From a virus, in IMG/VR virus record IMGVR_UViG_3300037755_001058, positions 1-64,000 of that record: a DNA stretch of 64,000 nt; one strand, 5' to 3'. The translations under genes and the position numbers were made by a program. This document shows positions 23,240 to 44,611 of this stretch, piece after piece (position 1 is the first letter of the stretch; each line of letters begins with the position of its first letter). Under the pieces are notes generated by a model, which worked only from the letters and a program-made list of their open reading frames with translations, was not told the DNA's origin and searched no databases.

Positions 23240-24103
23240 ATGGCCAGCGTTCCGCGCCCGCCCAGCAACAAGAGGAAAGCCGAGATCGACAAGGAGAGCC
23301 TCGCCACTCTGATAGAGGCGAGGCGGCTAGAGGATGAGGTCTTGAGGGATGTGGTCCCACAAGGCCCACGACCGAGACGTGCCATTATCCGCGACAAGCT
23401 CATCAGGTCATCAGACGCGGCTGATGACCAACGGTTTGTGGAATCCCAACGGTTGTGCTGGCACGCTGCCCATCTCATCGAGTACACCGTCTATACGGTT
23501 GCCCGTAAATGGGCGGCCCATAATGATAGCGTGTGTGATGAGGAGAGGGCCTGGGGTATGTGGGGCGCGTTCGAGGCCGCCAGGAGGTTCGATCCGGATA
23601 TGGGCGTCCTGTTCAGGACGTACGCGCGATGGTGGATCAGGGCGAAGATCACCAGGTCCATGCCCAATTCGAACCTTCCGGCTGGAAAGATCGAACAGGT
23701 GAGAAACCTACAGATCCTCAGAGATGAAGGAATCACCGATACTGACACGGTATGCCGGCGGATGGGCATAGACCGAGAGAGTCTGGAGAGGCTCAAGGTC
23801 TACGCGATGTCGAAATACTCCGTGTCTCTGGATTCTGGGCAGACCGACGAATATGACGATGTCCCGTTGGTTCTTGCATCTCCTGAGCCGGACTACCATG
23901 GTAGAGACATCGAGAAGCTGGTAGAGGCGCTGGACTCCCTCAGCGAACGTGAGAGGCACGTGGTGATCTGGAGGTACGGCATCGGTCAGTTAGAGCCAGT
24001 TCCTCTGTCTGAGGTCGGTCGTCGGCTGGATCTCTCGCGCGAGCGGGCCAGGCAGATCGAGGCCAAAGCCATCGAAGAGCTGAGACTCGCCCTCGCGGGT
24101 TAA
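23240..24103 (+). CDS. RNA polymerase sigma-70 family factor
   Basis: Region 2 AARRFDPDMGVLFRTYARWWIR; region 4 LSERERHVV..RYG...LSEVGRRLDLSRERARQIEAKA. Confidence 0.92.
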   Translation: MASVPRPPSNKRKAEIDKESLATLIEARRLEDEVLRDVVPQGPRPRRAIIRDKLIRSSDAADDQRFVESQRLCWHAAHLIEYTVYTVARKWAAHNDSVCDEERAWGMWGAFEAARRFDPDMGVLFRTYARWWIRAKITRSMPNSNLPAGKIEQVRNLQILRDEGITDTDTVCRRMGIDRESLERLKVYAMSKYSVSLDSGQTDEYDDVPLVLASPEPDYHGRDIEKLVEALDSLSERERHVVIWRYGIGQLEPVPLSEVGRRLDLSRERARQIEAKAIEELRLALAG

Positions 24104-29770: not shown

Positions 29771-30090
29771 TGGCCGACCCTTCCGAGGGGGTGAGGCGTT
29801 TTTTCGTGAACGCCGCCCAGCGCATATCGAGGCGACCCGTCGCCAAGGCAGCCTACGCGGCTACCTTGGTCGTCGGGCCGTTCAGTTTCAGTGTGGCAAC
29901 CAAAGGTACCGGGTCATCCTCATTGATTCCGAAGATCGGAATGCCAACAGCGACCAGATCAGACTCGTGGACGTCAGCCGTACTAGCGCGGCCCGAAGAA
30001 CAACGACGTACGAGGCTGTCTCGAGAAGAACGTAGGGATAAGAAGAGGCGTAGAAAGGTTACCCGCGCCGCCAAACGGAGGAACCGTTGA
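29770..30090 (+). CDS. basic hypothetical protein
   Basis: Coupled to neighbours on both sides; Arg/Lys-rich C-terminus. Confidence 0.5.
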   Translation: MADPSEGVRRFFVNAAQRISRRPVAKAAYAATLVVGPFSFSVATKGTGSSSLIPKIGMPTATRSDSWTSAVLARPEEQRRTRLSREERRDKKRRRKVTRAAKRRNR

Positions 30091-30866
30091 ACGTTCAGGC
30101 CTGCGCCCCAAATGGTATCGATCTCGTCGACCTGCCTTCGGACCCTCAGGCCGATATGATCTCTCGCCAGAGGCGCTTCCAGGCTCGGGTATACGGAGAA
30201 GCCAAGCTGGCAGAGTTGCGCGATTTCGGCTCATCACGGCGCTGTGACGTACGGGCCGTGTTGCATCACCTAGACATGGGTGGTCAGGAGTGCTCCGAGG
30301 CCTGGGACATGGTCGAGGGTGGATGGAAACACCACAAGACCAATCCGCACGATCCTGACAAGCTCGAACTCATGATGGAGCTCGTCGATATCATGTGTTT
30401 CGCGCTGAACACGTACATCTACATGGGGGGTCAGCCTGAATCGGAACTCGTGGCGGCGGCCGTTGCCAGGAGCAAGGAACAGATGCGATACCCGAAGATT
30501 GGCCTCGACGAGGCATGGGTCATCGGGGCATCGAGCTGGGAGAGGAACGGCCCGAAGATGCGAGCCCTGTACGATCATGGCCGCGGTAGCCATGGGCGGG
30601 AGTGGACCAAGGAAGCCGCGACGCGCATCAACTTCCTCAGGGCACAGTTCTTCGACTCAGCAGCAACCATCAGGTACGGTCTGTCGAGGATGACCAAGGC
30701 CGAGCGCGAGACGTTTCCGCCGGCGTCCGGTTATGTCTACATCCAACTCGTTCCGTGGATCTGCGGTGCGGTTCAGGCGATCCCTGGAATGGGACTACAG
30801 GACCTGTACTCTGCCTTCGTGAAGAAGGACCAGATCAACAATGAGAGGCAAGATGCAGGCTATTAG
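30087..30866 (+). CDS. all-alpha NTP pyrophosphatase (dimeric dUTPase / T4 gp56 dCTPase-like)
   Basis: QECSEAWD..WKHHK, MELVDIMCF, C-terminal KKDQINNERQDAGY. Confidence 0.8.
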   Translation: MNVQACAPNGIDLVDLPSDPQADMISRQRRFQARVYGEAKLAELRDFGSSRRCDVRAVLHHLDMGGQECSEAWDMVEGGWKHHKTNPHDPDKLELMMELVDIMCFALNTYIYMGGQPESELVAAAVARSKEQMRYPKIGLDEAWVIGASSWERNGPKMRALYDHGRGSHGREWTKEAATRINFLRAQFFDSAATIRYGLSRMTKAERETFPPASGYVYIQLVPWICGAVQAIPGMGLQDLYSAFVKKDQINNERQDAGY

Positions 30867-32064
30867 CCTGGGGTACCAATCGCATCCGTTGGACGACCAG
30901 TTCTCTGCGATCACGGTTCGTTTGAACGAGGCGTCCGATGAGCACACAGCTCTCGGGACATGCATCTTCGCCGGAGGATTTTCCTTCGGAATGGAAGAGG
31001 CCGGGTTCACGGTGGCCGGTCATCTCGAACTTCCGGACCTGGCCCTCGGGTCTCACACCTCCAAGCAGAGGTGGCCGGTTGCCGTAGCCAGTCTCGATCT
31101 ATGGAAGGAGTACATCGATCAGCTGCGGGATAAGGACATCGTTCCAGATGTATTCTACGCCAATCCACCTTGCGTTGCTTACGCCGGTACTGGGAAGCAC
31201 GATGGAACGATGGATAGTCGTATGTGCTATACCAGGTACTGCGCGTACGATGCAGCCATGAGACTTCAGCCTGACGTCTGGATGTGGGAGCTGGTCGACG
31301 GAGTCATGCGAGACCGAGGATTTCTCGATGCGATGGCGTTCCGAGCGAAGTCCCTCGGGTACAGGTGCTACGCATTCCTTACATCATCGGCTATCCATGG
31401 TGGATACCAGGACAGGCGTAGATTCCACTTCGTTGCTAGCCGGTTCGAGCTAGACTTCGAGGATGTGTGGGCCAACGAGCCCGTTCCTCGTAGGACCGTG
31501 CACACCCTCTCAGAGGCGTTGGCGTCGGTGCCTGCAGGTTCTACCAACCACGAGACCGTGTATAGGGGAGCATTCCGATCGATCTTCCCGTTCTGCCCCC
31601 CGGGAATGCACCTTCGGGATGTGTCTGATGATGTCATGCGTGAGCACTACCGTCCACGTGGTACTGCGTGGACAGGCACGGGGAGACCTGGGTTCTCACA
31701 CACGCGTGCGAGGATGGACCGGCCATCCCCTAATGTCCTCGGAGGCCATACGATAATCCACCCCATCGAGAACAGGTACCTCACACCTCGTGAGTGCGCC
31801 GCTATCATGGGGTTTCCCCATGACTACGCCTTCAGCCACGGTGCTATGGCGTACGCTGAGATAGGCAGGGGGTTGTGCACCCACAACGCCGCGTTCCTGG
31901 GGAGGGTAGTCAAGAACGCTCTTGAGAGGCGCGTGCGTACGGTGCCGACCAGGGTTGACGACTCCTGGATGACAGTGGTAGACTGGCGCCGGAGGGCCAA
32001 GCCCCTTCGGCTGAAGATGACCGAAGCCGAAATCGAGGCTTGGTGGAGTGAGCGAGTTTCGTAA
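30853..32064 (+). CDS. atypical C5-cytosine DNA methyltransferase homologue (candidate carboxymethyltransferase)
   Basis: IFAGGF (I), NPPC (IV), ELV (VI), QDRRRF (VIII), RYLTPRECAAIMGFP (IX), AYAEIGRG (X, N replaced by R). Confidence 0.85.
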   Translation: MQAISLGYQSHPLDDQFSAITVRLNEASDEHTALGTCIFAGGFSFGMEEAGFTVAGHLELPDLALGSHTSKQRWPVAVASLDLWKEYIDQLRDKDIVPDVFYANPPCVAYAGTGKHDGTMDSRMCYTRYCAYDAAMRLQPDVWMWELVDGVMRDRGFLDAMAFRAKSLGYRCYAFLTSSAIHGGYQDRRRFHFVASRFELDFEDVWANEPVPRRTVHTLSEALASVPAGSTNHETVYRGAFRSIFPFCPPGMHLRDVSDDVMREHYRPRGTAWTGTGRPGFSHTRARMDRPSPNVLGGHTIIHPIENRYLTPRECAAIMGFPHDYAFSHGAMAYAEIGRGLCTHNAAFLGRVVKNALERRVRTVPTRVDDSWMTVVDWRRRAKPLRLKMTEAEIEAWWSERVS

Positions 32065-34343: not shown

Positions 34344-36083
34344 GTGGCAGACGAGTATGCTCGCGAGGATGTTGCCATCATCCTCGAGAAGACGAACCTA
34401 CAAATCGGGTACATGGAGGGCGAGGTTCCTGGGTCTCCACCCCAGGAGGACCCGTTCGTCGTCGGAGCTGGTCAGATCGTCGAGCCACCGGTGAATCCTA
34501 CGCGCGCAATGCGCGCGGTCAAGTCGAACGGCCATCTTGCTGCGGTGTGTGCAGTAGTGGCGGAGGGGTGTGCCGGAGTCCGGTACGAGATGGTTCCCAG
34601 GTTCAGATCGAAGTTCGTTCCAGGGATGGAGAACTTCGACGCGGCCAGGCCGGATACGTGGCCCCCTGAGGCTCGAGAGCAACGGCGGAAGCTCCAGGTA
34701 CTCGTGCAGGCGGGCTTCATTGGAAGAGGCGCGGAGTCCATCCGGTCCGGGTTCAAGGACCAGGAGCTCGATAGGATCATCCTGGGGTGGGGTGGAGTCC
34801 AGGTCCGGCGAGAACCGACGGTGCGCGGTGGTCCATCGGTTCCGCCACCGCGAGGTCTATCACGGTTCGAGGCCTGCAACGCTCGGTTCACACATCCAGA
34901 TAGAACTGCCACCATGACACCGGTGCCGGTGGCGTTGGAAGATGGTACGATCTGGTGGGTAGAGGAACCACGATTCTTCAGGAAGCTGCGAGTGCAGCTG
35001 GCCAACGGCCGCTACACCTGGTTCAAGGAATACGGTGATTGGCGGTCGATGTCGTCTCGTACGGGCAATCGTTCTACGGGAGCAAGGCGCAAGCCTTCCA
35101 TGGTTCCTGGCCAGCCAGGAACGTACACCCCCGGACAGGTTCCGGACGGACATCCGGCTGCGATCGAGGTGATGCACTGGAGGACCTCGTTTCCAGGAGT
35201 GTACCCGTACGGATGGTCGGCGTGGCATAGCGAGATGCGAGCGGCCGATGCGGCCGATGAGCACATCGGCCTCGTTCTTCAGTACCTCAAGTCTGGATTG
35301 CACTCGCTGGTGTTGGCTGCTAGCACCAGACCGTTCGACCAGGCTGCAGCACAGGCTGCCATCCAAAAGGTCGATGAGCTCGGTCGTGGTCGGAAGGGGT
35401 TAGGTTCCTTGGTCACTCTGGCCTTGGTGCCATCAGACAGCGACGCCAGGTCGCCGGCTGCGATGTTCGACAATGGGACTGCCGATACTGGGAAGCTGGT
35501 CCTCCATGAGATCAGTACGAAGCTTCCCGATGCGCTCCTCAGCAAGGACGGCCTTCAGGAATCCACATCAGTACGGTTCAGCAACGCAGAGCGGATCCCT
35601 GGGCTGTTGCTGGGACGGTCAGAGACGTACAACTTCGCCACGGCGTCAGCAGCATGGGCGGTGGTAAACCGACTGAGGTTTGGCCCTAGTCACGAGGAGC
35701 GCGAGTCGTTCCTCGATAGGTTCCTGATCGAGATGGGGATCACCTTCTGGCGCCTGGACGTAGTCTCACCTGAATGGGATGACAAGGAGCCATTGTCTGG
35801 CATTGCCTCCGTGGCCGGTCAGTACGGTGGTATGTCGGCCAACGATGCCATGATGATGTTGAGCGATGTCCTCAACACCGAGTTCAAGCCGTCGAAGGAC
35901 TGGTGGGGCGACGTTCCATTCGCGCTCGTCAACGCCATCATCAACGCAACGGACCCTTCGGGGCTGGCCAAGCTGATGGGAGTTGATCTTCCTGAAGACT
36001 TCAAGAACGTCGTTCCGCAGGTGGCCACACTGGCTGCCATGGTAGAGGAGCGTCTTACGGCGCTCGAGGCTCAGGTTCCGTAG
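34344..36083 (+). CDS. phage portal protein
   Basis: WFKEYGD, IEVMHWR...PYG, IPGLLLGRSETYNFATA resemble PBSX-type portals; 579 aa. Confidence 0.7.
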   Translation: MADEYAREDVAIILEKTNLQIGYMEGEVPGSPPQEDPFVVGAGQIVEPPVNPTRAMRAVKSNGHLAAVCAVVAEGCAGVRYEMVPRFRSKFVPGMENFDAARPDTWPPEAREQRRKLQVLVQAGFIGRGAESIRSGFKDQELDRIILGWGGVQVRREPTVRGGPSVPPPRGLSRFEACNARFTHPDRTATMTPVPVALEDGTIWWVEEPRFFRKLRVQLANGRYTWFKEYGDWRSMSSRTGNRSTGARRKPSMVPGQPGTYTPGQVPDGHPAAIEVMHWRTSFPGVYPYGWSAWHSEMRAADAADEHIGLVLQYLKSGLHSLVLAASTRPFDQAAAQAAIQKVDELGRGRKGLGSLVTLALVPSDSDARSPAAMFDNGTADTGKLVLHEISTKLPDALLSKDGLQESTSVRFSNAERIPGLLLGRSETYNFATASAAWAVVNRLRFGPSHEERESFLDRFLIEMGITFWRLDVVSPEWDDKEPLSGIASVAGQYGGMSANDAMMMLSDVLNTEFKPSKDWWGDVPFALVNAIINATDPSGLAKLMGVDLPEDFKNVVPQVATLAAMVEERLTALEAQVP

Positions 36084-36109: not shown

Positions 36110-36138
36110 TTGATGCAACCTACCATGAGTGTTATAAC
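36110..36138 (+). promoter_or_regulatory. sigma-70-type promoter for the MTase-NDT-kinase-TS-PolA operon
   Basis: TTGATG-17 bp-TATAAC with TG extended -10. Confidence 0.65.
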
Positions 36139-36157
36139 TCTTGTGGGAGGAGCAAGG

Positions 36158-37105
36158 ATGGAAGGATTGATCTGTCTACGAACTGGACAGCTCCGCAGAG
36201 GTTCTGACGGACAGTCAGAGCCAGTCGATCCCGATGGAATCGAGCACATGTGGGTGCCCATCATCGAGGGTGAGCCAATGTTCGTTCAGAACGTGGGCTC
36301 TACCTCTAACCCGCACGACCGAACCGACGATGGAAGGTTCGACAGATCGCACCTCTCCCCAGAGAGGGCATACAGGATCGGTCGCGATTACTTGGCGCAC
36401 TGTATTCGGTACGGTTTCCCGATGAAGGTGATCAAGGAGCACTTCGGGGCTGGGGTTCGCATCCTGGAGATGGGGTGCGGGAAGGAGATCCCGTTGTTCA
36501 GGACGCTCACCTGCGACCATTCCGCCACGAAGTACTACAAGCCGAGTCAGTACTGCGGAGTCGACCTGAATCCCATCAAGTACCATCCTCGAGTGACAGG
36601 CATCGAGAGCAAGGTTCTCTCGCGCGTCAACTGCGTGACCGAACCGGAGAAGGTGCCAGATTGGACGTTCGATCTGGTCTTGTCCTTCGAGGTCGTCGAG
36701 CACATGGACAAGCCCGACGGTGACAGGTTCCTCGATGCCATGGTGACCTTCGCCAAGCGCAAGGTCGATCGTGAGGGCAAGCCAGGAATGATCCTCCTGT
36801 CGACACCCGTGAACAACGGAACCATCGCCAAGAACCACATCTACGAGTGGCGGCGCTCGGAGCTGGAACGAGCCTGGACCAGGCGTGGGTGCAGAGTGCT
36901 CGAGCAGTACGGTACGTTCAGCAACCTCAGGGACCTGTTCGCGGCTATGGACGACACCGAGATCGAGGTGTGGAATCGCATGGCGGCCTACCACAGTCCG
37001 AACACGCTGTCATGCGTGTTCAGCGCCATGCATCCTGAGGCCGCTAGGAACGTGGCCTGGAAGATCGAGGTTGGTGAGGATTCACACCCTCTGGATGGAC
37101 GATGA
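36158..37105 (+). CDS. class I SAM-dependent methyltransferase
   Basis: RILEMGCG, YCGVD, FDLVLSFEVVEHM, LLSTP; GGAGG RBS. Confidence 0.85.
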   Translation: MEGLICLRTGQLRRGSDGQSEPVDPDGIEHMWVPIIEGEPMFVQNVGSTSNPHDRTDDGRFDRSHLSPERAYRIGRDYLAHCIRYGFPMKVIKEHFGAGVRILEMGCGKEIPLFRTLTCDHSATKYYKPSQYCGVDLNPIKYHPRVTGIESKVLSRVNCVTEPEKVPDWTFDLVLSFEVVEHMDKPDGDRFLDAMVTFAKRKVDREGKPGMILLSTPVNNGTIAKNHIYEWRRSELERAWTRRGCRVLEQYGTFSNLRDLFAAMDDTEIEVWNRMAAYHSPNTLSCVFSAMHPEAARNVAWKIEVGEDSHPLDGR

Positions 37106-37317
37106 GCAAAGGTACGACGTGTCTGGCGTGCCGGCACTGTTTCATGGAGCCGGACGATGACTTCTGCTGCGGGCATCCAGATGCCGGAGAGGTGGGGACG
37201 TACGTCAAACGCGCAGCGGTGGAGGGGGGACACTGCGGCCCAGAGCGGCCGAAGTTCGAGCAGCACCCGCTCCGCACCGCCGACGGCTACATGAAGCCGA
37301 TCGAGCGTACCACATGA
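37102..37317 (+). CDS. small Cys-rich protein
   Basis: CLACRHC...CCGH...HCG; ATGA coupling. Confidence 0.6.
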   Translation: MSKGTTCLACRHCFMEPDDDFCCGHPDAGEVGTYVKRAAVEGGHCGPERPKFEQHPLRTADGYMKPIERTT

Positions 37318-37733
37318 ATTACTACCTCGCAACCAAGCTCGAACGTGCCGAAGAAGCACGCGCAGTGCACTTCAACCTGGTTTCTCTCGATGTAGGCTTC
37401 AAGTGTACCTACGACTGGACAACCCATGGTTCGGTCAAGAACACCTCCAGGATCCGTCTGGCAGAGGTTGGACTGAACGAGACCAAGGGTGTCCTCAGTG
37501 CTGACGTGGTGATCGTTCTTCTTCCTGGAGGGCGAGGCACCCACGCCGAGCTCGGAATCGCGATCGGCGCTGGCAAACGAGTGATCCTTCATTCGAAGAC
37601 CGGCAATGAGTTCGAGGTCAACGACGGGACCTGTGCGTTCTACTGGCAGCCGCTGTGCGAGAGGGTCGTGGGAGACCTAACCGCGCTCGTCAAGTACCTC
37701 GCCGAGCCGGCCGTCGGGATGATCGTCAGGTGA
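37314..37733 (+). CDS. nucleoside 2-deoxyribosyltransferase-family N-glycosidase (NDT/DNPH1/MilB-like)
   Basis: YYLA...GVLSADVVIVLLPGGRGTHAELGIA. Confidence 0.75.
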   Translation: MNYYLATKLERAEEARAVHFNLVSLDVGFKCTYDWTTHGSVKNTSRIRLAEVGLNETKGVLSADVVIVLLPGGRGTHAELGIAIGAGKRVILHSKTGNEFEVNDGTCAFYWQPLCERVVGDLTALVKYLAEPAVGMIVR

Positions 37734-38611
37734 ACCCAGTCATCATCATCGAGGGTCCGGACGGGGTGGGCAAGACCACCCTGTGCGATGCCCTCGCACA
37801 GAGGTTTTTGGGCTCGTGTACGATTGTTCATTCCGTTCACTATGGCCCACCACCCGGTGATGAACCAACCGCCCTGTACTACTGGGACGAGGTGGACAAC
37901 ATCCTGGGCCTGGCGAAGTCCGGTCCAGTGATCGTCGACAGATTCCATGTTGGTGAGATGGTCTACGGCCCGATCCTCCGGGGTGATGCTGGGATGAGCC
38001 TCGACGAGGCTTGTGTCATCGACATGCGACTGCAGGCCATCGGCGCCATGATGTGTCATTGTAGGCTATCATCCACAGACCTATCGTCCAGATTGCTGTC
38101 CAGGGACGGCGGCCTTCCGGATTCTGCTAGCGGCGCCGCGCTGGGCCACAGCGAAGCCGTTCGGGCAGCGTTCTTTGGGATGACCAACGGAGTGCTTCCG
38201 TCGTCTTGGGAGCAGCTCGATATGACCTGGTACCCAGCACAGCTGGTTCCACTGGTGGCGCTGTCGTCGATCTCCCTGAGCACATTCGGTGCGGAGGTTG
38301 GGGTCATCGGCAATGTCAGGTCTCCACAAGTGCTCATCAAGGTGCCGAACTCTGACATGGATACCCTCTCGAGGGTAGTTCGAGGTTTGAGGTTGGCGGG
38401 GATGGTACGGGTCTCTGCCATCGAATATGATGACACCGATCTGAACTACACAACCGTATCTCGATCAGTAGCCATGGGGTTGTCACTGCATCGTACCCTC
38501 ATGGAAAGGGGGTTCAAGCTCCCGTCTGTCGTGTCCACCGACGCGACTCCGGAAGATATCGCCGAGGCAGTACGAACCGCCGTGGTGGCACAGCCCAGTC
38601 CGGAAGGATAG
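37730..38611 (+). CDS. dNMP/thymidylate kinase-like P-loop kinase
   Basis: IIIEGPDGVGKTT, IVDRFHVGEMVYGPILRG. Confidence 0.85.
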   Translation: MNPVIIIEGPDGVGKTTLCDALAQRFLGSCTIVHSVHYGPPPGDEPTALYYWDEVDNILGLAKSGPVIVDRFHVGEMVYGPILRGDAGMSLDEACVIDMRLQAIGAMMCHCRLSSTDLSSRLLSRDGGLPDSASGAALGHSEAVRAAFFGMTNGVLPSSWEQLDMTWYPAQLVPLVALSSISLSTFGAEVGVIGNVRSPQVLIKVPNSDMDTLSRVVRGLRLAGMVRVSAIEYDDTDLNYTTVSRSVAMGLSLHRTLMERGFKLPSVVSTDATPEDIAEAVRTAVVAQPSPEG

Positions 38612-38631
38612 ACACATGGGTGAGGTGAACG

Positions 38632-38886
38632 ATGAAGTTCAACGAGACGGCCATCAAGGCGCTCCCGGAGCGAAACCAGAGAACGATCATGAACCTCCTC
38701 AAGGAGTTGGAGGTCTCCCCGGAGCGGGGGACCTTCGTGATCAGTCGGGAGATCCTCGACCGGATGACCCCCCGGCAGCTCAGGACGCTCAGGCTGATGC
38801 GGCGCGTCCACGACGCGATGGACGTTCCGGTGGTGACACGAGGCCGTTCATCAATCAAGCGGAAGGAGTCGACCGCGACGGAGTGA
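38632..38886 (+). CDS. hypothetical protein
   Basis: GAGGTG RBS; TGATG coupling to the TS homologue. Confidence 0.6.
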   Translation: MKFNETAIKALPERNQRTIMNLLKELEVSPERGTFVISREILDRMTPRQLRTLRLMRRVHDAMDVPVVTRGRSSIKRKESTATE

Positions 38887-39842
38887 TGTCATTCGGCTCG
38901 ATGGATGAGCTCTTCAGGTTCGCCGTCTGGAAGTGCATCGAGCATGGACGGATGACCAAGCCGAGGGGCTTTTCGGTTCTGGAGATCGCCACTCCCACCG
39001 TGCTCACCTTGCGGGACGTCCACAGGCCGTTCATCCACTCGCCTCTGCGACGGCCCAACTACCGATTCGGCCTGGTAGAGGCCGCATGGATCGCAGCCGG
39101 ATCCGATCGTCTGGCCCACCTTTCCGCCGTGAACTCGCGGATGGCACGGTTCAGCGATGATGACTCCACGATGTGGGGTGGGTATGGGCCGCGCGTGATC
39201 GGTCAACTCGACCATGTCATCGAGACACTGCGGCGGGACAACGACAGTCGCCAGGCGGTCGTGACGACATGGCGACCCATGGTTCCACCGGTGGTGGGCA
39301 AGTCTCAAGGCCCGATTCGATCGGCTGGCCTGATGGCCACAGGTTCTGAGACGGTCAGTCCTACATGGGATGGCTACTCCTGGCGATCAAAGGACGTCCC
39401 GTGCACCGTAGCATGGCACTTCCAGTTGCGGAACGGCGGACTGGCTCTGACCGTATTCATGCGGTCTAACGACGTGTGGCTGGGGTTGCCGTACGACGTG
39501 CTGAGCTTCACCACCATCCAGCGTGTGGTTGCTTCTGCACTTGGTGTGAGACTCGGTGCGTACCACCATGTGGTCAGCAACCTTCATCTGTACCAGAAGA
39601 ACTACGAGGCTGCTGTCAGTCTCATGGGGGAGACCGTCTCCAACGAGACTGTGGTGATGCCACCATTCGATGACCTGTTCCTCGGTGGCAGTAGTGATTC
39701 GATGTCGACGATCTTCAACACGACTCTCAACGGCTCTCTCATCTTGATGTCCAAGCCCGGGATGCAGCCGTTCATCTCGGCGGTGATTGGATCCGATGAA
39801 TGGGACGACTTCCGAAAGCTCATGGCTGCTAACGGAAGGTGA
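38886..39842 (+). CDS. thymidylate-synthase homologue, Asp-type (dCMP methylase/hydroxymethylase-like)
   Basis: YGPR, DSRQAV, KDVPCT, MRSNDVWLGLPYD (Asp at the EcTS N177 position), NLHLY. Confidence 0.85.
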   Translation: MSFGSMDELFRFAVWKCIEHGRMTKPRGFSVLEIATPTVLTLRDVHRPFIHSPLRRPNYRFGLVEAAWIAAGSDRLAHLSAVNSRMARFSDDDSTMWGGYGPRVIGQLDHVIETLRRDNDSRQAVVTTWRPMVPPVVGKSQGPIRSAGLMATGSETVSPTWDGYSWRSKDVPCTVAWHFQLRNGGLALTVFMRSNDVWLGLPYDVLSFTTIQRVVASALGVRLGAYHHVVSNLHLYQKNYEAAVSLMGETVSNETVVMPPFDDLFLGGSSDSMSTIFNTTLNGSLILMSKPGMQPFISAVIGSDEWDDFRKLMAANGR

Positions 39843-39854
39843 TAGGATCTCAGT

Positions 39855-42242
39855 ATGCTCGACGCCTCCTACAGGATCTGTTGGTCTATCGACTCTTGGG
39901 TATCAACCCTTCGAGAGGCTCAGGATTCGTGGATAGTTGGGTATGACTTCGAAACCTGTCCTGACAGGTTCCATGCCGACTACCACCCGAAGAAGGGTCG
40001 CGATGGCAAGCCGAGTAAGTGCATCCCCAGCGCTCTTCGTCCTGAGGATGGAGCAAGAATCGCGGGCATAGCCATTTCATGGCTCGACACCAATGACCGA
40101 ATCAGGTCCGCGTACGCCCCCATCAGGCACGATCCACGGTTCGCGGGTGGTGATCAGCTTGACCCATTGCAGGTCTGTAAGGCATTCAGCGACTTCATCG
40201 CCGACAGGCCTGCTGATAGGTATCTGGTTGTTCACAATCTCATGATGGAGCTTAGTTGTCAGCTGGCCGAGAATATCGTGTGGCCGAAGGAGGGGCAACT
40301 TCACGACATTCAGATCGCGGCCAGGGTTCTCAACCGGGGAGTAGGATTCCAGGAGCTGATCGGCCTCAAGCCACTCCAGGCCGAGGTGTTGAAGCGAGAC
40401 ATGGGGTCCAAGAACGACTTGGATCGTTGGCTGAAGGCCCATAGGTTCAAGCCTGGTCGTGACATCTGGAGAGCCCCTGCACCATTGGCCGGTTGGTACG
40501 CTCAGGATGATGCCCGTGACACTCTCGAGATCTGTCTGAAGTGGTGGAAGCTGATTCATCAGCCACCTACCAGATGGTGGTGGCACAGGGCACCAGATAG
40601 GTCTCAGCGCCTGGACCTGTACGAACTCGAGATTCGTGCGGCTATTGAAGCCACAATCTCATGCATGCGTGGGACACGGTACGATGCACCCTTCTGCCGG
40701 CGTCAAGGACGCGCGGCCGAGGTACTGCAGTCCATCGCTCGCGACTGGATCCGAGGATACCTGGGAATGCCGGCCCTCAATCCAGGAAGCCAAACCCAGC
40801 TCAGAGGTGTTCTGTTCGGAACTCGGTTCAACTTCGAAGTCTCGCTCGAGCACACGACGGAGAGCTTCAAGAAGCTACCAGAGCGTGAACAGGCATCGAC
40901 AATAGCTGGGCATGGCAAGGCACCTCTGGTGAGTTACGCCTCTCTCGATGTTGATGCCCTCAAGTACTACGAGTCCAAGTACATAGAACACGCGGACCTG
41001 CTGTTCATGCTGGCTGTGTACCGTAAGTGCTCCACAGCCATATCGTGGTTCGATGACAGGGTCCTGCAGTTCGGCGTTCGTGGATCTCCAGATCCATGGT
41101 GGAATTCAGACGCTGGTTCGTACCTGAACTTGATGTTCCATCGTCTGAGGACGGTAGGGACCGGCCCGGGCCGGATGAGCAGTTCAGACTACAACGCTCA
41201 GCAGGTGCCGAAGCGACTGAAGATGCTGCTGAACGCAGCTCGGCTATTCCGTATCCTGGAGGAGGTCATGCACCCGTCCAGGCTAAACGGAATCATGTCG
41301 ATTCTGATTAGAGTACCGTGTAAGGAGGGCGACGAGGCGAAGGTCCTTGGACTGCAGCCTGGTGACGAGGTGGTGGACTTCTCCATCAGGAGAATGTTTA
41401 TCTCCAGGCCGGAGTTCAACCTCAGGACGTTCGACCTCTCACAGGTCGAGATGCGTGGGTTTGCCCATTACACGGGTAATCGCCTACTGTGTAACGGGTA
41501 CGGGCCACCGTTGGCTAACGTCGCGGCCTTAGCAGAGTTAGACGCCGTCCAAGCTCTCATGGAGGAACGTGAGCCTGATTGGTCGAATGTCGATGTTGAA
41601 CGCCATGTTAGGATGGAGGAGAACGAGTTCGACATTCATGGATTCGTCAGTGACGAGCTGAGCATCTCACGCAAGGGTGGAAAGGGGATCAACTTTGGGC
41701 TCGTCTACGGAATGGGTGAAAAGAAGCTGGCTCGAGGTCTAGGGTGGTCACCTGGCGACGGAAAGCTGTACCTAGCCAGATACCATGCCAAGTTTCCAGA
41801 GATCAGGCAGATGCAGGGAAAGATCGTCATCGCCCTGAGGAGCAGGGGATACGTCTTCGATCCATTCGGCAGACGTTACTACCTACCGGTGGCCAGAGCG
41901 TACGTAGGCTTGAACCGCCTGATCCAAGGGTGGGCTGCCACTGCGTTCAAGGTGGGATTCGTCAGGACCTCCGAGGTGTTCAGGTCACCAGGGTTCGGTG
42001 GTGGGTCTATCGATTCTGTCACTGGACTCCGTCGTAGTGATGGAGCCAGAATCCTCACCTGTATCCATGACGAGCAGATGGGTGAGATCCACAGGTCGCT
42101 CGATAATGTCAGGACTGACTGGGTGGTCAGGTCGTGCATGACGAACCTGTTCGGATTGAACGTACCGCTAGCATCGTCATCTGAACGTTCCGACGGCCCG
42201 TGGGACAATGCTACCGGTGTCTCGGCTAAACTACCAGTATGA
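39855..42242 (+). CDS. polA: family A DNA polymerase with 3'-5' exonuclease
   Basis: YDFET, HN, YAQDDA exonuclease; TGPGRMSS, FDLSQVEMR (A), RKGGKGINFGLVYG (B), IHDE (C). Confidence 0.95.
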   Translation: MLDASYRICWSIDSWVSTLREAQDSWIVGYDFETCPDRFHADYHPKKGRDGKPSKCIPSALRPEDGARIAGIAISWLDTNDRIRSAYAPIRHDPRFAGGDQLDPLQVCKAFSDFIADRPADRYLVVHNLMMELSCQLAENIVWPKEGQLHDIQIAARVLNRGVGFQELIGLKPLQAEVLKRDMGSKNDLDRWLKAHRFKPGRDIWRAPAPLAGWYAQDDARDTLEICLKWWKLIHQPPTRWWWHRAPDRSQRLDLYELEIRAAIEATISCMRGTRYDAPFCRRQGRAAEVLQSIARDWIRGYLGMPALNPGSQTQLRGVLFGTRFNFEVSLEHTTESFKKLPEREQASTIAGHGKAPLVSYASLDVDALKYYESKYIEHADLLFMLAVYRKCSTAISWFDDRVLQFGVRGSPDPWWNSDAGSYLNLMFHRLRTVGTGPGRMSSSDYNAQQVPKRLKMLLNAARLFRILEEVMHPSRLNGIMSILIRVPCKEGDEAKVLGLQPGDEVVDFSIRRMFISRPEFNLRTFDLSQVEMRGFAHYTGNRLLCNGYGPPLANVAALAELDAVQALMEEREPDWSNVDVERHVRMEENEFDIHGFVSDELSISRKGGKGINFGLVYGMGEKKLARGLGWSPGDGKLYLARYHAKFPEIRQMQGKIVIALRSRGYVFDPFGRRYYLPVARAYVGLNRLIQGWAATAFKVGFVRTSEVFRSPGFGGGSIDSVTGLRRSDGARILTCIHDEQMGEIHRSLDNVRTDWVVRSCMTNLFGLNVPLASSSERSDGPWDNATGVSAKLPV

Positions 42243-43033: not shown

Positions 43034-43506
43034 TGGACAGCCCACCAGACCTTAGGGTGCTGTTGGTGGAGCTCGCCCGGGAGCTCAATCGGATTCGTCC
43101 TGAATCCGTTCTGGGTGCGGAGCTGGAGCGAGTATCCACGGCCAAGAACACGTTGTTAGTGCTCAGTCGTGTTCTAACGGCCATGGCCGTTCGGGCCGGC
43201 GTATCGAAGGATGCGGTTGACAGGGCCGTGGCCAAGGCCCGTCGGGCTAACGAACCCAAGCAGGGTGACATGTTCGTTCCTGTTGTGGTCAGCCCGGTTG
43301 CTGAGACGTTGACGACTACCACGGATTGGTACATCATCGCTGAGGTTGACCTGGTGCTTCTCAAGCACCGAACGGAACTTCCAGACTGGTTCGTTAACGA
43401 TTTCTGGCCAGGCTGCATACGGCGCGCGGCTCAGGGCCTGAGGTTGACTGATCGAGAGCGAGCAATTGCCGAGTACCAAGCCAGTAAGGCCAGGGGGGAA
43501 CGGTGA
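43030..43506 (+). CDS. hypothetical protein
   Basis: ATGA coupling. Confidence 0.65.
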   Translation: MMDSPPDLRVLLVELARELNRIRPESVLGAELERVSTAKNTLLVLSRVLTAMAVRAGVSKDAVDRAVAKARRANEPKQGDMFVPVVVSPVAETLTTTTDWYIIAEVDLVLLKHRTELPDWFVNDFWPGCIRRAAQGLRLTDRERAIAEYQASKARGER

Positions 43507-43967
43507 TGAGGCCATCTTGGGACGAGTACTTCATGCACATGGCGGTGATGATCTCCACCAGATCGACGTGTGACCGTCGCAGGGTGGGGTGCGTACTGGT
43601 GTCGCCTCAGTGGAATGTGGTGAGCACCGGGTACAATGGCTCGGCTCCTGGAACTGAACACTGTGACGATACGGGTCACATCATGCACGATGGGCACTGC
43701 GTTCGTACCATCCATGCCGAACGCAACGCCATCGCCCATGCTGCCAAGCGCGGAGTGGCTACCGACAGGACTACGGCGTACATCACCACGATGCCGTGTC
43801 CCACGTGCATCACCGATCTTGTTGCAGCAGGGATCAAGTCGGTGGTCTTCCTAGAAGGCTACCACGACGAGGAGGATCAGGTCACTCGTCGCTTGGCCGC
43901 GGCGAGCGGTGTCGTGCTGTACGAATACGACGGGAGAAAGACATGGGAAAGTCCGATCGACCGGTGA
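43503..43967 (+). CDS. dCMP deaminase
   Basis: RPSWDEYFM, RSTC.RRRVG, GYNG, HAERNAI, PCPTC. Confidence 0.92.
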   Translation: MMRPSWDEYFMHMAVMISTRSTCDRRRVGCVLVSPQWNVVSTGYNGSAPGTEHCDDTGHIMHDGHCVRTIHAERNAIAHAAKRGVATDRTTAYITTMPCPTCITDLVAAGIKSVVFLEGYHDEEDQVTRRLAAASGVVLYEYDGRKTWESPIDR

Positions 43968-44611
43968 GAATAGCTCTCATCGGAGCATCAGGTACTGGCA
44001 AGACCACGCTGGCAACCCACATCTCCACCACGTTCGGGATTCCCATGAACCCACACGGTTCCAGGTCCACAGCCGCCGCCATGGGTTTCGGTAGCCCGTA
44101 CGACGTGGATAGGGCATCGAAGCAGGCGTACAAGGCAGCCCTCATGGAGGGGTACGACCCCAAGTCGGCTGCACAAATCTCCATGATAGATTGGGCCACC
44201 TACGGCCGTGGTGGTACGGTACGACCGCTGTTCCAGACCGGTCTTCAGAAGACGAAGATAGAATGGGAACGTGCCAACCTCCCCTTCGTCACGGATAGAA
44301 CCACTATCGACGACCTGTGCTACGCCCTGCTACACTGCGTCGAGGTCGTGAACTATGAGTTTCTAGAGGCGGCTCGTGCGCACATGGCCATCTACGATCT
44401 GGTGGTGTACTGTCCCGCCTACGCATTCATCAACCTGGGTGACGACCCTGCGAGGCTGTCCAGTCGAGCGTACCATACCACATTCGACATCATGCTGTCT
44501 GGGTTCATGCACTCGTGGGACATCATGCGAAATGCGTTGGTGCTGGACACTTCAGACCTGAACTGGCGGTGTGAGGCTACTGAACTGGCTGTACGTGCCA
44601 TCGCGTCCTGA
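43964..44611 (+). CDS. P-loop nucleotide kinase (AAA_28-like)
   Basis: IALIGASGTGKTTLA, FVTDRTTID. Confidence 0.8.
   Translation: MRIALIGASGTGKTTLATHISTTFGIPMNPHGSRSTAAAMGFGSPYDVDRASKQAYKAALMEGYDPKSAAQISMIDWATYGRGGTVRPLFQTGLQKTKIEWERANLPFVTDRTTIDDLCYALLHCVEVVNYEFLEAARAHMAIYDLVVYCPAYAFINLGDDPARLSSRAYHTTFDIMLSGFMHSWDIMRNALVLDTSDLNWRCEATELAVRAIAS

Follow-up and report, generated by a model that had tools for sequence, protein, structure and literature searches.

The gene cluster at positions 36110-42242 of an uncultured phage (~92 kb) raises the question of which modified pyrimidine it might produce, and by which enzymes. The window, i.e. the whole analysed stretch of 64,000 nucleotides, had been given an initial annotation, in which the cluster was an operon with its own promoter, encoding an orphan methyltransferase (MTase), a Cys-rich peptide, a glycosidase, a kinase, a thymidylate synthase (ThyA) homologue, and a DNA polymerase.

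Gene organization of the module

All of these genes are present on the + strand: those for a class I MTase, a Cys-rich peptide of 71 aa, an NDT-like protein, a P-loop kinase, the ThyA homologue, and PolA. The genes are tightly coupled as annotated, with overlapping start/stop junctions (ATGA, ATGA, GTGA, and TGATG). The module is wider than these limits: a pyrophosphatase, a dCMP deaminase, and a second kinase lie beyond them, and ThyX is encoded in the same genome outside the window. The phage genome has one ThyA homologue only. The features are as follows.

30087..30866, +, all-alpha NTP pyrophosphatase, dUTPase_2 family (PF08761, 1.4e-8, above cut-off; phrog_173 NTP pyrophosphohydrolase, 2.8e-12)
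30841-32064, conserved C5-cytosine DNA methyltransferase of the same module
36110..36138, +, promoter-like TTGATG-17-TATAAC, in the 74-nt gap 5' of the MTase gene
36158..37105, +, class I SAM methyltransferase, Hen1/UbiG-like, putatively metal-dependent, 315 aa (PF13489, 3e-8)
37102..37317, +, Cys/His-rich protein, 71 aa, probably zinc-binding, accessory
37314..37733, +, NDT-superfamily protein, 139 aa, accessory (PF05014, 7e-5; phrog_12607, 2.5e-7)
37730..38611, +, Tmk-like dNMP kinase, 293 aa, C-terminal domain degenerate (phrog_761, 9e-14; PF02223, 2e-5)
38632..38886, +, 84-aa gene, no function assigned (GC3 and a weak L005 homologue)
38886..39842, +, ThyA homologue, 318 aa, predicted dCMP 5-hydroxymethylase (PF00303, 7.8e-18)
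39855..42242, +, family A DNA polymerase (PolA), 795 aa (PF00476, 7.3e-27; phrog_17, 5.9e-52)
43503..43967, +, dCMP deaminase (PF00383, 1.2e-25)
43940..44611, +, second P-loop kinase, AAA_28/thymidylate-kinase-like (phrog_2107, 1.2e-13; PF13521, 3.2e-9)

Two gene borders were redrawn. For the MTase gene, ATG 36158, preceded by GGGAGGAG, is the most probable start, not TTG 36110. The single 408-aa "TS" ORF was split into the 84-aa gene, overlooked in the initial annotation, and the ThyA homologue, because GC3 is 0.89 in the former against 0.46 in the overlapping TS-extension frame, and because the relative L005 has a weak homologue of the 84-aa gene in the corresponding place (E 5.6e-7).

The letters of the proposed promoter are present, but the match is no better than chance. 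The consensus promoter scan did not list this site because its TATAAC is without the final T. Three promoter-like sites were observed at 33-45 kb against 3.7 expected, and the motif with up to two mismatches occurred once against 0.85 expected. It showed no recognisable conservation in a 73%-identical relative. The phage has its own sigma factor gene.

The ThyA homologue as a predicted dCMP hydroxymethylase

The ThyA homologue reads MRSNDVWLGLPYD, whose final GAC at 39495 does place Asp at the position of EcTS N177. Its closest solved relative is MilA (1.8e-24; true TS 1.9e-14). Alignments gave the residues D143, C146, S167, D169, D177, and R126 (Ec numbering). The published signature of 5hm-dCMP synthases, with experimentally validated residue determinants, consists of D at the L143 position, C146, retained D169, and D177 (PMC13326640); for the ribose, the deoxy type has Ser167 and Arg126', whereas Ala and Lys take their places in MilA and BcmA (PMC5175136). 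Thus the ThyA homologue carries the full set of dCMP-hydroxymethylase diagnostic residues; the residues marking thymidylate synthase, 5-hydroxy-dCMP synthase, or the ribo-specific MilA/BcmA were all absent from it in these alignments. The enzyme is therefore predicted to be a dCMP 5-hydroxymethylase. Asp at position 177 disfavours dUMP as the substrate. Of the two products initially proposed, 5hm-dCMP fits the signature, but 5-methyl-dCMP is disfavoured, since D143 replaces a bulky hydrophobic residue and argues for water attack. Because dTMP could be supplied by the dCMP deaminase and ThyX, the ThyA homologue would be free for cytosine.

The methyltransferase family and its linkage to the ThyA homologues

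The MTase is no orphan but a member of a large, virus-restricted family with representatives on at least 262 IMG/VR contigs. In 65/79 fetched loci, a same-strand ThyA homologue lies no more than 7 kb away, and the usual cassette order is MTase, pyrophosphatase, kinase, TS, deaminase, and PolA. Together with AXL3, a PW916-type phage, and two spring phages, these loci gave 69 neighbouring ThyA homologues; all 69 have C146, D169, and D177, and 66 also have D143. The other 14 of the 79 loci have no TS within 7 kb, and some of them are on truncated contigs; among four searched, a TS was found elsewhere on the contig in two (signatures DCDD and NCDD). In the reverse survey, which took the 80 nearest ThyA relatives, 51 had the MTase upstream, and other genes occupy its slot in the MTase-negative cassettes. 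The dCMP deaminase occurs in 47/79 MTase-centred and 76/80 ThyA-centred cassettes. The virus-restricted MTase family is thus locked to dCMP-hydroxymethylase-type ThyA homologues; the functional link is strongly backed by this synteny, conserved across many unrelated phage contigs.

Comparison of the family profile with the PDB identified bacterial Hen1 (9e-5) and human HENMT1 (2e-4). The family has Hen1-like GCG and GVD motifs, together with the E-x-x-E-H and H metal ligands known from Hen1 (PMC10781085); among 73 distinct members, each of E178, E181, H182, and H227 is retained by 69-73. The AXL3 homologue matches the UbiG and bacterial Hen1 models. Structural comparison of the AF2 model (pLDDT 86.6) gave CmoM (Z 18.2), HEN1 (Z 15.1), and many others (Z 15-17), and places the modelled MTase among generic class I MTases; the Hen1 kinship is based on the profile E of 9e-5 and the shared motifs. 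Since the core resembles Hen1/UbiG and a metal-dependent O-methyltransferase, O-methylation is the best guess for the "further methylation" initially proposed. We infer a metal-assisted O-methyltransferase that would convert 5hmC to 5-methoxymethylcytosine. A point against this is that the metal of Hen1 binds a ribose 2',3'-diol, from which a lone hydroxymethyl differs as a ligand.

Accessory and flanking genes

The PF05014 match of the NDT-like protein (7e-5, 23.4 bits) is below the cut-off of 28.8, and nearly all of its at least 495 homologues have PF05014. Its family profile identified BcmB (0.007), NDTs (0.02), and MilB (0.04) in the PDB, and the catalytic Glu of GTHAELG is invariant. By sequence, it is likely a pyrimidine (deoxy)nucleotide N-glycosidase or deoxyribosyltransferase. 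The Cys-rich protein has no Pfam or PHROG match; C7, C10, C23, H25, H44, and C45 are conserved in 14 homologous clusters (62-82% identity). Both genes are absent from the two close relatives (L005 and L091) and from all 79 + 80 related cassettes, and form an accessory insertion. One possible role of this insertion is pool sanitation, such as clearing hm-dUMP made by the deaminase; human DNPH1 removes hm-dUMP.

The Tmk-like kinase was modelled with a pLDDT of 94; its N-domain resembles 2axp (Z 19.0) and dTMP kinases (Z 14-16), and homology to the cassette kinases extends over the N-terminal ~125 aa. The pyrophosphatase, with 48% identity and conserved order in the relative L011, is a candidate for the pathway dCTPase/dUTPase. 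The PolA motif A, read directly as DLSQVEMR, keeps the steric-gate Glu. The second kinase is conserved in L005 and L091.

Proposed pathway and alternative explanations

The region may hold the central genes of a pathway for pre-replicative cytosine replacement, along with a tailoring MTase that would make 5-methoxymethylcytosine; we give this reading a probability of about 0.5. The gene set (Tmk-like kinase, dUTPase_2-type pyrophosphatase, dCMP deaminase, PolA, ThyX, and ThyA homologue) is consistent with cytosine replacement of the T4 style. The pyrophosphatase would remove dCTP, and the ThyA homologue would convert dCMP to 5-hydroxymethyl-dCMP with methylene-THF as donor. The Tmk-like kinase might phosphorylate this product, the host NDP kinase would complete the triphosphate, and the phage PolA would incorporate it, while the deaminase and ThyX would supply dTMP. 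The Hen1-like Glu-Glu-His-His metal site of the MTase would deprotonate the hydroxyl, and the SAM methyl would be transferred to the 5-CH2OH of 5hmC at the DNA or nucleotide level. The methyl cap might take the role of glucosylation or carbamoylation in other hmC phages. If so, 5-methoxymethylcytosine would add a hitherto undescribed base to those known from DNA. A counterpoint to full replacement is the conserved C5-cytosine DNA methyltransferase (30841-32064), whose substrate would be gone if all C were replaced.

The MTase might instead methylate another atom once 5hmC is made, such as N4, N3, or O2 of (hydroxymethyl)cytosine, or another nucleotide's hydroxyl; in that case the pathway would end in an isomeric methylated hmC, not in the methyl ether. 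The synteny fits this equally well, and the structural neighbours mix N-, O-, and C-methyltransferases with no clear winner. BcmC methylates O2 of hydroxymethylcytosine in bacimethrin synthesis. However, the metal site is typical of Hen1-type hydroxyl-activating O-methyltransferases, and N-methylation needs none; we regard this alternative as rather unlikely. It is plainly unlikely that the MTase is a true Hen1-type RNA 3'-terminal ribose 2'-O-methyltransferase, for example shielding tRNAs or primers from host ribotoxins or exonucleases, and sits in the nucleotide module only through shared early/middle expression. Its best solved sequence relatives are Hen1 enzymes with the same four metal ligands and SAM motifs, and one homologue record is annotated as "capping protein". 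But the FXPP RNA-binding motif occurs in 3/73 family members (chance level), and no Pnkp, ligase, or phosphatase partner was found in the operon. The NCBIfam bacter_Hen1 model scored 28 bits against a cut-off of 340 for the AXL3 homologue and had no match in the window protein. Co-expression alone hardly explains the uniform residues of the neighbouring ThyA homologues.

The ThyA homologue would have another meaning if it were a dCMP methyltransferase (XP12-like 5-methylcytosine DNA) or an ordinary thymidylate synthase, with the MTase unrelated. Database records mostly label the homologues as thymidylate synthase, and the hosts of XP12 and AXL3-type phages are both Xanthomonadaceae; yet D177 speaks against dUMP, D143 points to a hydroxymethyl product, and ThyX meets the need for dTMP, so that this seems improbable. 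A small-molecule pathway like those of mildiomycin and bacimethrin, in which a CMP hydroxymethylase, an N-glycosidase, and a methyltransferase release a modified free pyrimidine as an antimetabolite, would agree with MilA as the nearest solved relative of the ThyA homologue, and with BcmB and MilB as those, marginal, of the NDT-like family. It is highly improbable given the deoxyribose-type Ser167 and Arg126', the glycosidase gene missing from every other cassette fetched, and the dCMP deaminase and DNA polymerase that flank the cassette.

Comparison with known systems

The analogy with MilA/MilB and BcmA/B/C in the initial annotation proved superficial. A cytosine-specific hydroxymethylating ThyA homologue (Asp at 143 and 177), an NDT-superfamily glycosidase, and a SAM methyltransferase are likewise present in one genome; however, the ribose determinants are of the deoxy type, the glycosidase is outside the conserved cassette, and the surroundings are a phage DNA replication module. 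The MTase shares with Hen1/HENMT1 the class I fold, the GCG and GVD(I/L) SAM motifs, and the metal ligands in the same order, but has no FXPP, Pnkp partner, or ligase-activating or dsRNA-binding domains. RDYxAHxxR and RNxxW are conserved motifs peculiar to its family, which, unlike Hen1/HENMT1, is virus-restricted and tied to dCMP hydroxymethylase genes.

The T4 5hmC pathway consists of gp56 dCTPase, gp42 dCMP hydroxymethylase, gp1 dNMP kinase, cd dCMP deaminase, and glucosyltransferases. Common to both are an NTP pyrophosphatase, a dNMP kinase, a dCMP deaminase, an own DNA polymerase, a separate tailoring enzyme, and a ThyA homologue with the Asp177/Asp-or-Glu143 signature. Where T4 has glucosyltransferases, the tailoring enzyme here is a SAM methyltransferase; dTMP is made via ThyX, and the genes are gathered in one cassette. 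A Tmk-like enzyme serves as the kinase, and most cassettes encode it as a fusion with a family-4 UDG-like domain. MetaGPA found a 5hmC carbamoyltransferase in analogous TS/pyrophosphatase/deaminase cassettes of cytosine-modified contigs from metagenomic phages (PMC8670742). There too, a variable tailoring gene lies beside a TS homologue, a PRA-PH/MazG-type pyrophosphatase, and a dCMP deaminase, although the enzyme family differs and a methyl from SAM (product predicted) would replace the carbamoyl.

Stenotrophomonas phage AXL3 (gp27-gp31) and Pseudoxanthomonas phage PW916 share the MTase (29% identity), NTP pyrophosphatase, kinase, DCDD ThyA homologue, dCMP deaminase, and ThyX. AXL3 is a ~47-kb siphovirus of another lineage, without the NDT gene, the Cys-rich peptide, and the 84-aa gene, and its kinase has an intact UDG-like domain. 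Its DNA is resistant to 35/37 restriction enzymes; only AATT and TTAA cutters cleave it, and every tested enzyme with G/C in its site fails to cut (PMC7504290). Since the cultured AXL3 combines the cassette with restriction-resistant DNA, the capping idea is directly testable.

Gene organization of the phage

The window covers the initial 64 kb of an IMG/VR virus record of 91,853 bp, which has about 60% G+C and an estimated completeness of 85%. No DNA-level match to the window region was found by megablast among 50,697 phage records. The stretch from 21 to 62 kb is a plus-strand replication and nucleotide-metabolism module, whose genes include those for helicases, a sigma factor, a primase-helicase, PolA, and a topoisomerase-like protein. 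The genes considered here are as follows.

23240-24103: phage-encoded sigma factor (phrog_351, 2.7e-26)
30087-30866, + strand: pyrophosphatase of the dUTPase_2 family, a candidate dCTPase
36158-37105, + strand: class I SAM methyltransferase (MTase), 315 aa
37102-37317, + strand: Cys-rich peptide, 71 aa
37314-37733, + strand: NDT-like protein
37730-38611, + strand: Tmk-like kinase
38632-38886: 84-aa gene
38886-39842, + strand: ThyA homologue, 318 aa
39855-42242, + strand: PolA
43503-43967, + strand: dCMP deaminase
68021-69205 of the genome, outside the window: ThyX

The genes named in the initial annotation, from the MTase to PolA, all exist. The 408-aa 'TS' frame is actually two genes, the 84-aa gene and the ThyA homologue that starts at 38886. 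For the 84-aa gene, GC3 is 0.89, compared with 0.46 for the alternative frame, and the relative L005 has a weak homologue at the same position. The 84-aa gene follows that of the kinase and precedes that of the ThyA homologue, where it is masked by the longer N-terminal extension of the ThyA reading frame, which runs out of frame with it. The genes are tightly joined: ATGA at both the MTase/Cys-rich peptide and the Cys-rich peptide/NDT junctions, GTGA at NDT/kinase, and TGATG at the 84-aa frame/ThyA junction, with gaps of 20 nt before the 84-aa frame and 12 nt before PolA.

The operon had also been assigned its own promoter. The motif TTGATG-17-TATAAC is present at 36110-36138, within a 74-nt gap, and is followed by GGGAGGAG and the ATG at 36158; but its frequency is indistinguishable from chance, and the closest relative has no recognisable counterpart of it. 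The phage encodes a sigma factor, and therefore its middle or late promoters may differ from the sigma-70 consensus by which this one was called. An own promoter for the operon is possible. Directly upstream of the MTase, at 34344-36083, is a gene for a 579-aa protein with no Pfam or PHROG match. Its language-model features liken it to phage portal proteins (176 shared, score 0.97); finding a portal inside a replication module would be odd, and the similarity is kept as a lead.

Methyltransferase family and gene neighbourhood

The MTase, once described as an orphan, has relatives in many contigs and in cultured phages. Its 47 close relatives (52-76% identity) are found on metagenomic contigs of up to about 100 kb, and distant relatives (25-29% identity) are encoded by the Stenotrophomonas phage AXL3, the Pseudoxanthomonas phage PW916, and two Manatee Spring phages. 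A pattern scan identified at least 262 IMG/VR contigs encoding a relative, and a metagenome scan for cassette neighbourhoods gave only three loci. The protein-language-model neighbours of the MTase belong to clusters that are 95-100% viral. In AXL3, PW916, and the Manatee Spring phages, the annotated gene order is MTase, NTP-PPase, (kinase), ThyA homologue, dCMP deaminase, and (DNA polymerase), which is referred to here as the cassette.

In a survey of MTase neighbourhoods, which had been proposed as a check, 65 of the 79 loci fetched were seen to encode a ThyA homologue on the strand of the MTase and no more than 7 kb away. The same loci contain the pyrophosphatase (50), the deaminase (47), the kinase (44), and the polymerase (48). 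Of four loci without a nearby ThyA homologue that were searched further, two lie on contigs that encode one in another place, and two on contigs less than 45% complete. Conversely, the MTase lies upstream in 51 of the 80 nearest relatives of the ThyA homologue. The ThyA cassettes without the MTase have other genes in its slot, some with weak similarity to PLP enzymes (PALP). In some of these cassettes the weakly PALP-like gene stands upstream of the pyrophosphatase gene, as in the related loci L125 (5885-6820) and L101 (4582-6120). The PALP-like protein is a possible alternative hmC tailoring enzyme.

Predicted specificity of the ThyA homologue

The ThyA homologue matches PF00303 with 65 bits (cut-off 24.3) and phrog_5131 at 5.4e-48, and it is the only one in the genome. 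The closest solved structure is the CMP hydroxymethylase MilA (1.8e-24), ahead of the best true thymidylate synthase (1.9e-14). In E. coli numbering, experimental work has identified C146 as the catalytic residue and N177D as the change that selects cytosine; a hydroxymethyl rather than a methyl product goes with L143D/E, and D169N marks the 5-hydroxy-dCMP synthases (Lee et al. 2026, PMC13326640). The ribonucleotide preference of MilA and BcmA comes from Ala and Lys in place of Ser167 and Arg126' (Zhao et al. 2016, PMC5175136).

All of these positions could be read in the window protein. The Cys of KDVPCT is aligned with the catalytic Cys of the thymidylate synthases and MilA, and the Asp of KDVPC, at position 143, is aligned with that of the MilA DVAC. 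Position 177 is the Asp of GLPYD, and the GAC codon at 39495 does encode it, as first reported. The deoxyribose determinants Ser167 (RSND) and Arg126' (DSRQ) are both found. A CMP-specific enzyme of the MilA/BcmA type can thus be rejected, because Ser and Arg are present instead of Ala and Lys. A 5-hydroxy-dCMP synthase like RB69 gp48 is rejected as well, since that type is marked by Asn at position 169 and RSND retains Asp. On the basis of D143, C146, S167, D169, D177, and Arg126', the ThyA homologue is predicted to be a dCMP hydroxymethylase of the T4 gp42 type, converting dCMP to 5hm-dCMP with CH2-THF. Among the MTase-adjacent ThyA homologues, C146, D169, and D177 are present in 69 of 69, and residue 143 is D in 66, Y in two, and N in one.

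A clade-specific insertion of about 40-55 residues (39282-39392, ThyA residues ~133-169) is located immediately N-terminal to the catalytic Cys. It is shared with the relatives L005 and L091 and is missing from the AXL3-type enzymes.

Partner enzymes

The genome encodes both ThyX and a dCMP deaminase, which indicates a dTMP supply independent of the ThyA homologue. The ThyX gene gives two PF02511 matches in a single 497-aa open frame, which would be a ThyX with tandem domains or a fusion of two copies. The kinase contains the P-loop EGPDGVGKTT (pattern EGxDGxGKTT) and the DRF motif (pattern DR(F/Y)) of Tmk-like enzymes. Its AF2 model (pLDDT 94) has Z scores of 14-16 to dTMP kinases and of 19.0 to 2axp (rmsd 2.3 Å, 167 aligned). 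Its phage relatives, found by tblastn in the 50,697 records, are 'thymidylate kinases' adjoining ThyA homologues. Among these tblastn matches there were no 5-hmU DNA kinases and none from the phages M6 (gp54), ViI (gp67), or PhiW-14 (gp37). A second kinase gave no tblastn match with a query taken from a poorly chosen start (43964). PolA matches the family A polymerase Pfam model with 94.7 bits (cut-off 34.3). Its steric-gate Glu is kept (DLSQVEMR), so that ordinary 2'-deoxy substrates are expected; for the same reason, incorporation of 2'-O-methyl nucleotides was rejected.

In most cassettes the Tmk-like kinase is longer, at about 330 aa, and ends in a domain with homology to family-4 uracil-DNA glycosylases (UDG), with profile matches to 1l9g/1vk2 at 9e-5 and the motifs GE/GD, PF, ALG, and HPxxxxRF. 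Examples are found in the related loci L002 (7928-8377) and L057 (8757-9206), among others. In the window kinase, this domain (38285-38611) has lost the UDG motifs, and in L005 it is missing altogether. To our knowledge, a dNMP kinase-UDG fusion has not been described.

Accessory genes

With 23.4 bits, the NDT-like protein stays below the PF05014 cut-off of 28.8; its homologues at 45-64% identity carry a precomputed PF05014 assignment, as do nearly all of the at least 495 homologues. The catalytic Glu nucleophile (G-x-x-x-E-(L/I)-G) is present in GTHAELG, which aligns with GTHVEIG of MilB and BcmB, and this motif is invariant in 26 homologues. By family profile, it is marginally nearest to the CMP N-glycosidases BcmB (0.007) and MilB (0.04) and to NDTs (0.02). 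The Cys-rich peptide is a genuine conserved small protein with a C/C/C/H/H/C pattern. Both genes are missing from the 73% and 65% MTase relatives, in which the kinase directly follows the MTase or an unrelated 72-aa frame, and neither is found in any of the other 159 cassettes. The pair is therefore regarded as an insertion outside the conserved system. The resemblance of this enzyme set to the mildiomycin and bacimethrin pathways, on which the initial annotation had drawn, is coincidental at the pathway level. By analogy, it is a reasonable idea that the NDT-like protein may serve in pool sanitation, for example by hydrolysing hm-dUMP formed by the deaminase. In human cells, DNPH1 hydrolyses hm-dUMP.

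Putative chemistry of the methyltransferase

The best solved relatives of the MTase family profile are the bacterial Hen1 (3jwi/3jwg, 9e-5) and the human HENMT1 (2e-4). The alignment covers FEVVEHMDK versus IEVIEHLDE and KNHIYEW versus DHRFEW, and the GCG and GVDI motifs of Hen1 are matched by GCG and GVDL. In Hen1, two Glu and two His residues bind Mg2+/Mn2+, which holds and activates the terminal ribose hydroxyls (PMC10781085). All four ligands, the E-x-x-E-H motif and the downstream His, are present in the MTase as E178, E181, H182, and H227, and they are kept in 69-73 of the 73 distinct family members, the AXL3 type included.

Further features of the Hen1 enzymes were also examined. The FXPP motif for substrate and RNA binding is absent from the window MTase (no F.PP) and occurs in only 3 of the 73 members. 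The curated bacterial Hen1 model TIGR04074 gave no match to the window MTase at E <= 0.1, and the AXL3 homologue reached 28 bits (7.6e-7) against a cut-off of 340. No Pnkp (kinase-phosphatase-ligase) partner was found among the annotated neighbours. The NCBIfam models gave no useful assignment; the AXL3 homologue matched the UbiG O-methyltransferase model at 4.6e-8, far under its cut-off. The fold comparison by Foldseek and VIA identified generic class I MTases (CmoM Z 18.2, many at Z 15-17, HEN1 Z 15.1) and no decisive structural neighbour. In our reading of the sequence, the MTase would perform a Hen1-like, metal-assisted O-methylation of a hydroxyl, yet is not a Hen1.

The predicted product follows from the genomic partner, since the 5-CH2OH of hmC is the sole hydroxyl that it creates. 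The Hen1-like, metal-dependent MTase would O-methylate this group, either in DNA or in nucleotides, to form 5-methoxymethylcytosine. We tentatively propose, with a probability of about 0.3, that the phages with the cassette (AXL3, PW916, the window phage, and those represented by hundreds of metagenomic contigs) might carry 5-methoxymethylcytosine in place of cytosine, with 5hmC as the substrate of a metal-dependent O-methyltransferase derived from Hen1. Methoxymethylcytosine was not mentioned in the full-text papers of the collection searched. Of 37 enzymes tried on AXL3 DNA, only those that recognise AATT or TTAA cut it (PMC7504290).

The window also encodes a C5-cytosine DNA methyltransferase (30841-32064; PF00145, 3.8e-19), with PPC, WELV, and QDRRR motifs. 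Its gene overlaps the end of the pyrophosphatase gene and keeps 60% identity in the relative, and 7 of the 79 other loci likewise have such an enzyme close to the MTase. A full replacement of cytosine would leave this enzyme without a substrate in the phage DNA, which is a paradox.

Comparison with known hypermodification systems

The size of the MTase family and its exclusive tie to the hydroxymethylase signature are new in this analysis, as are the metal-site similarity to Hen1, the availability of cultured test organisms (AXL3 and PW916 are both cultured phages), and the reassignment of the NDT gene to an accessory role. If the proposal is true, 5-methoxymethylcytosine would join the natural DNA bases as one not previously described, and it would account for the resistance to restriction seen in candidate therapeutic phages, AXL3 among them. 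A widespread SAM-dependent tailoring would add both a new DNA base and a new activity, a 5hmC O-methyltransferase, which could serve epigenomics by labelling or blocking 5hmC.

The 5hmC pathway as such belongs to a type already known. Several hypermodifications of phage DNA, such as glucosyl and carbamoyl, have 5hmC as their hub and defeat restriction and CRISPR nucleases. The MTase slot at the head of the cassette fits a variable 'tailoring' position before a conserved core, and the same architecture has been reported for a 5hmC carbamoyltransferase on cytosine-modified contigs (PMC8670742). Compared with these systems, the conserved and uncharacterised Hen1-like companion MTase points to a putative new variant of hmC hypermodification.
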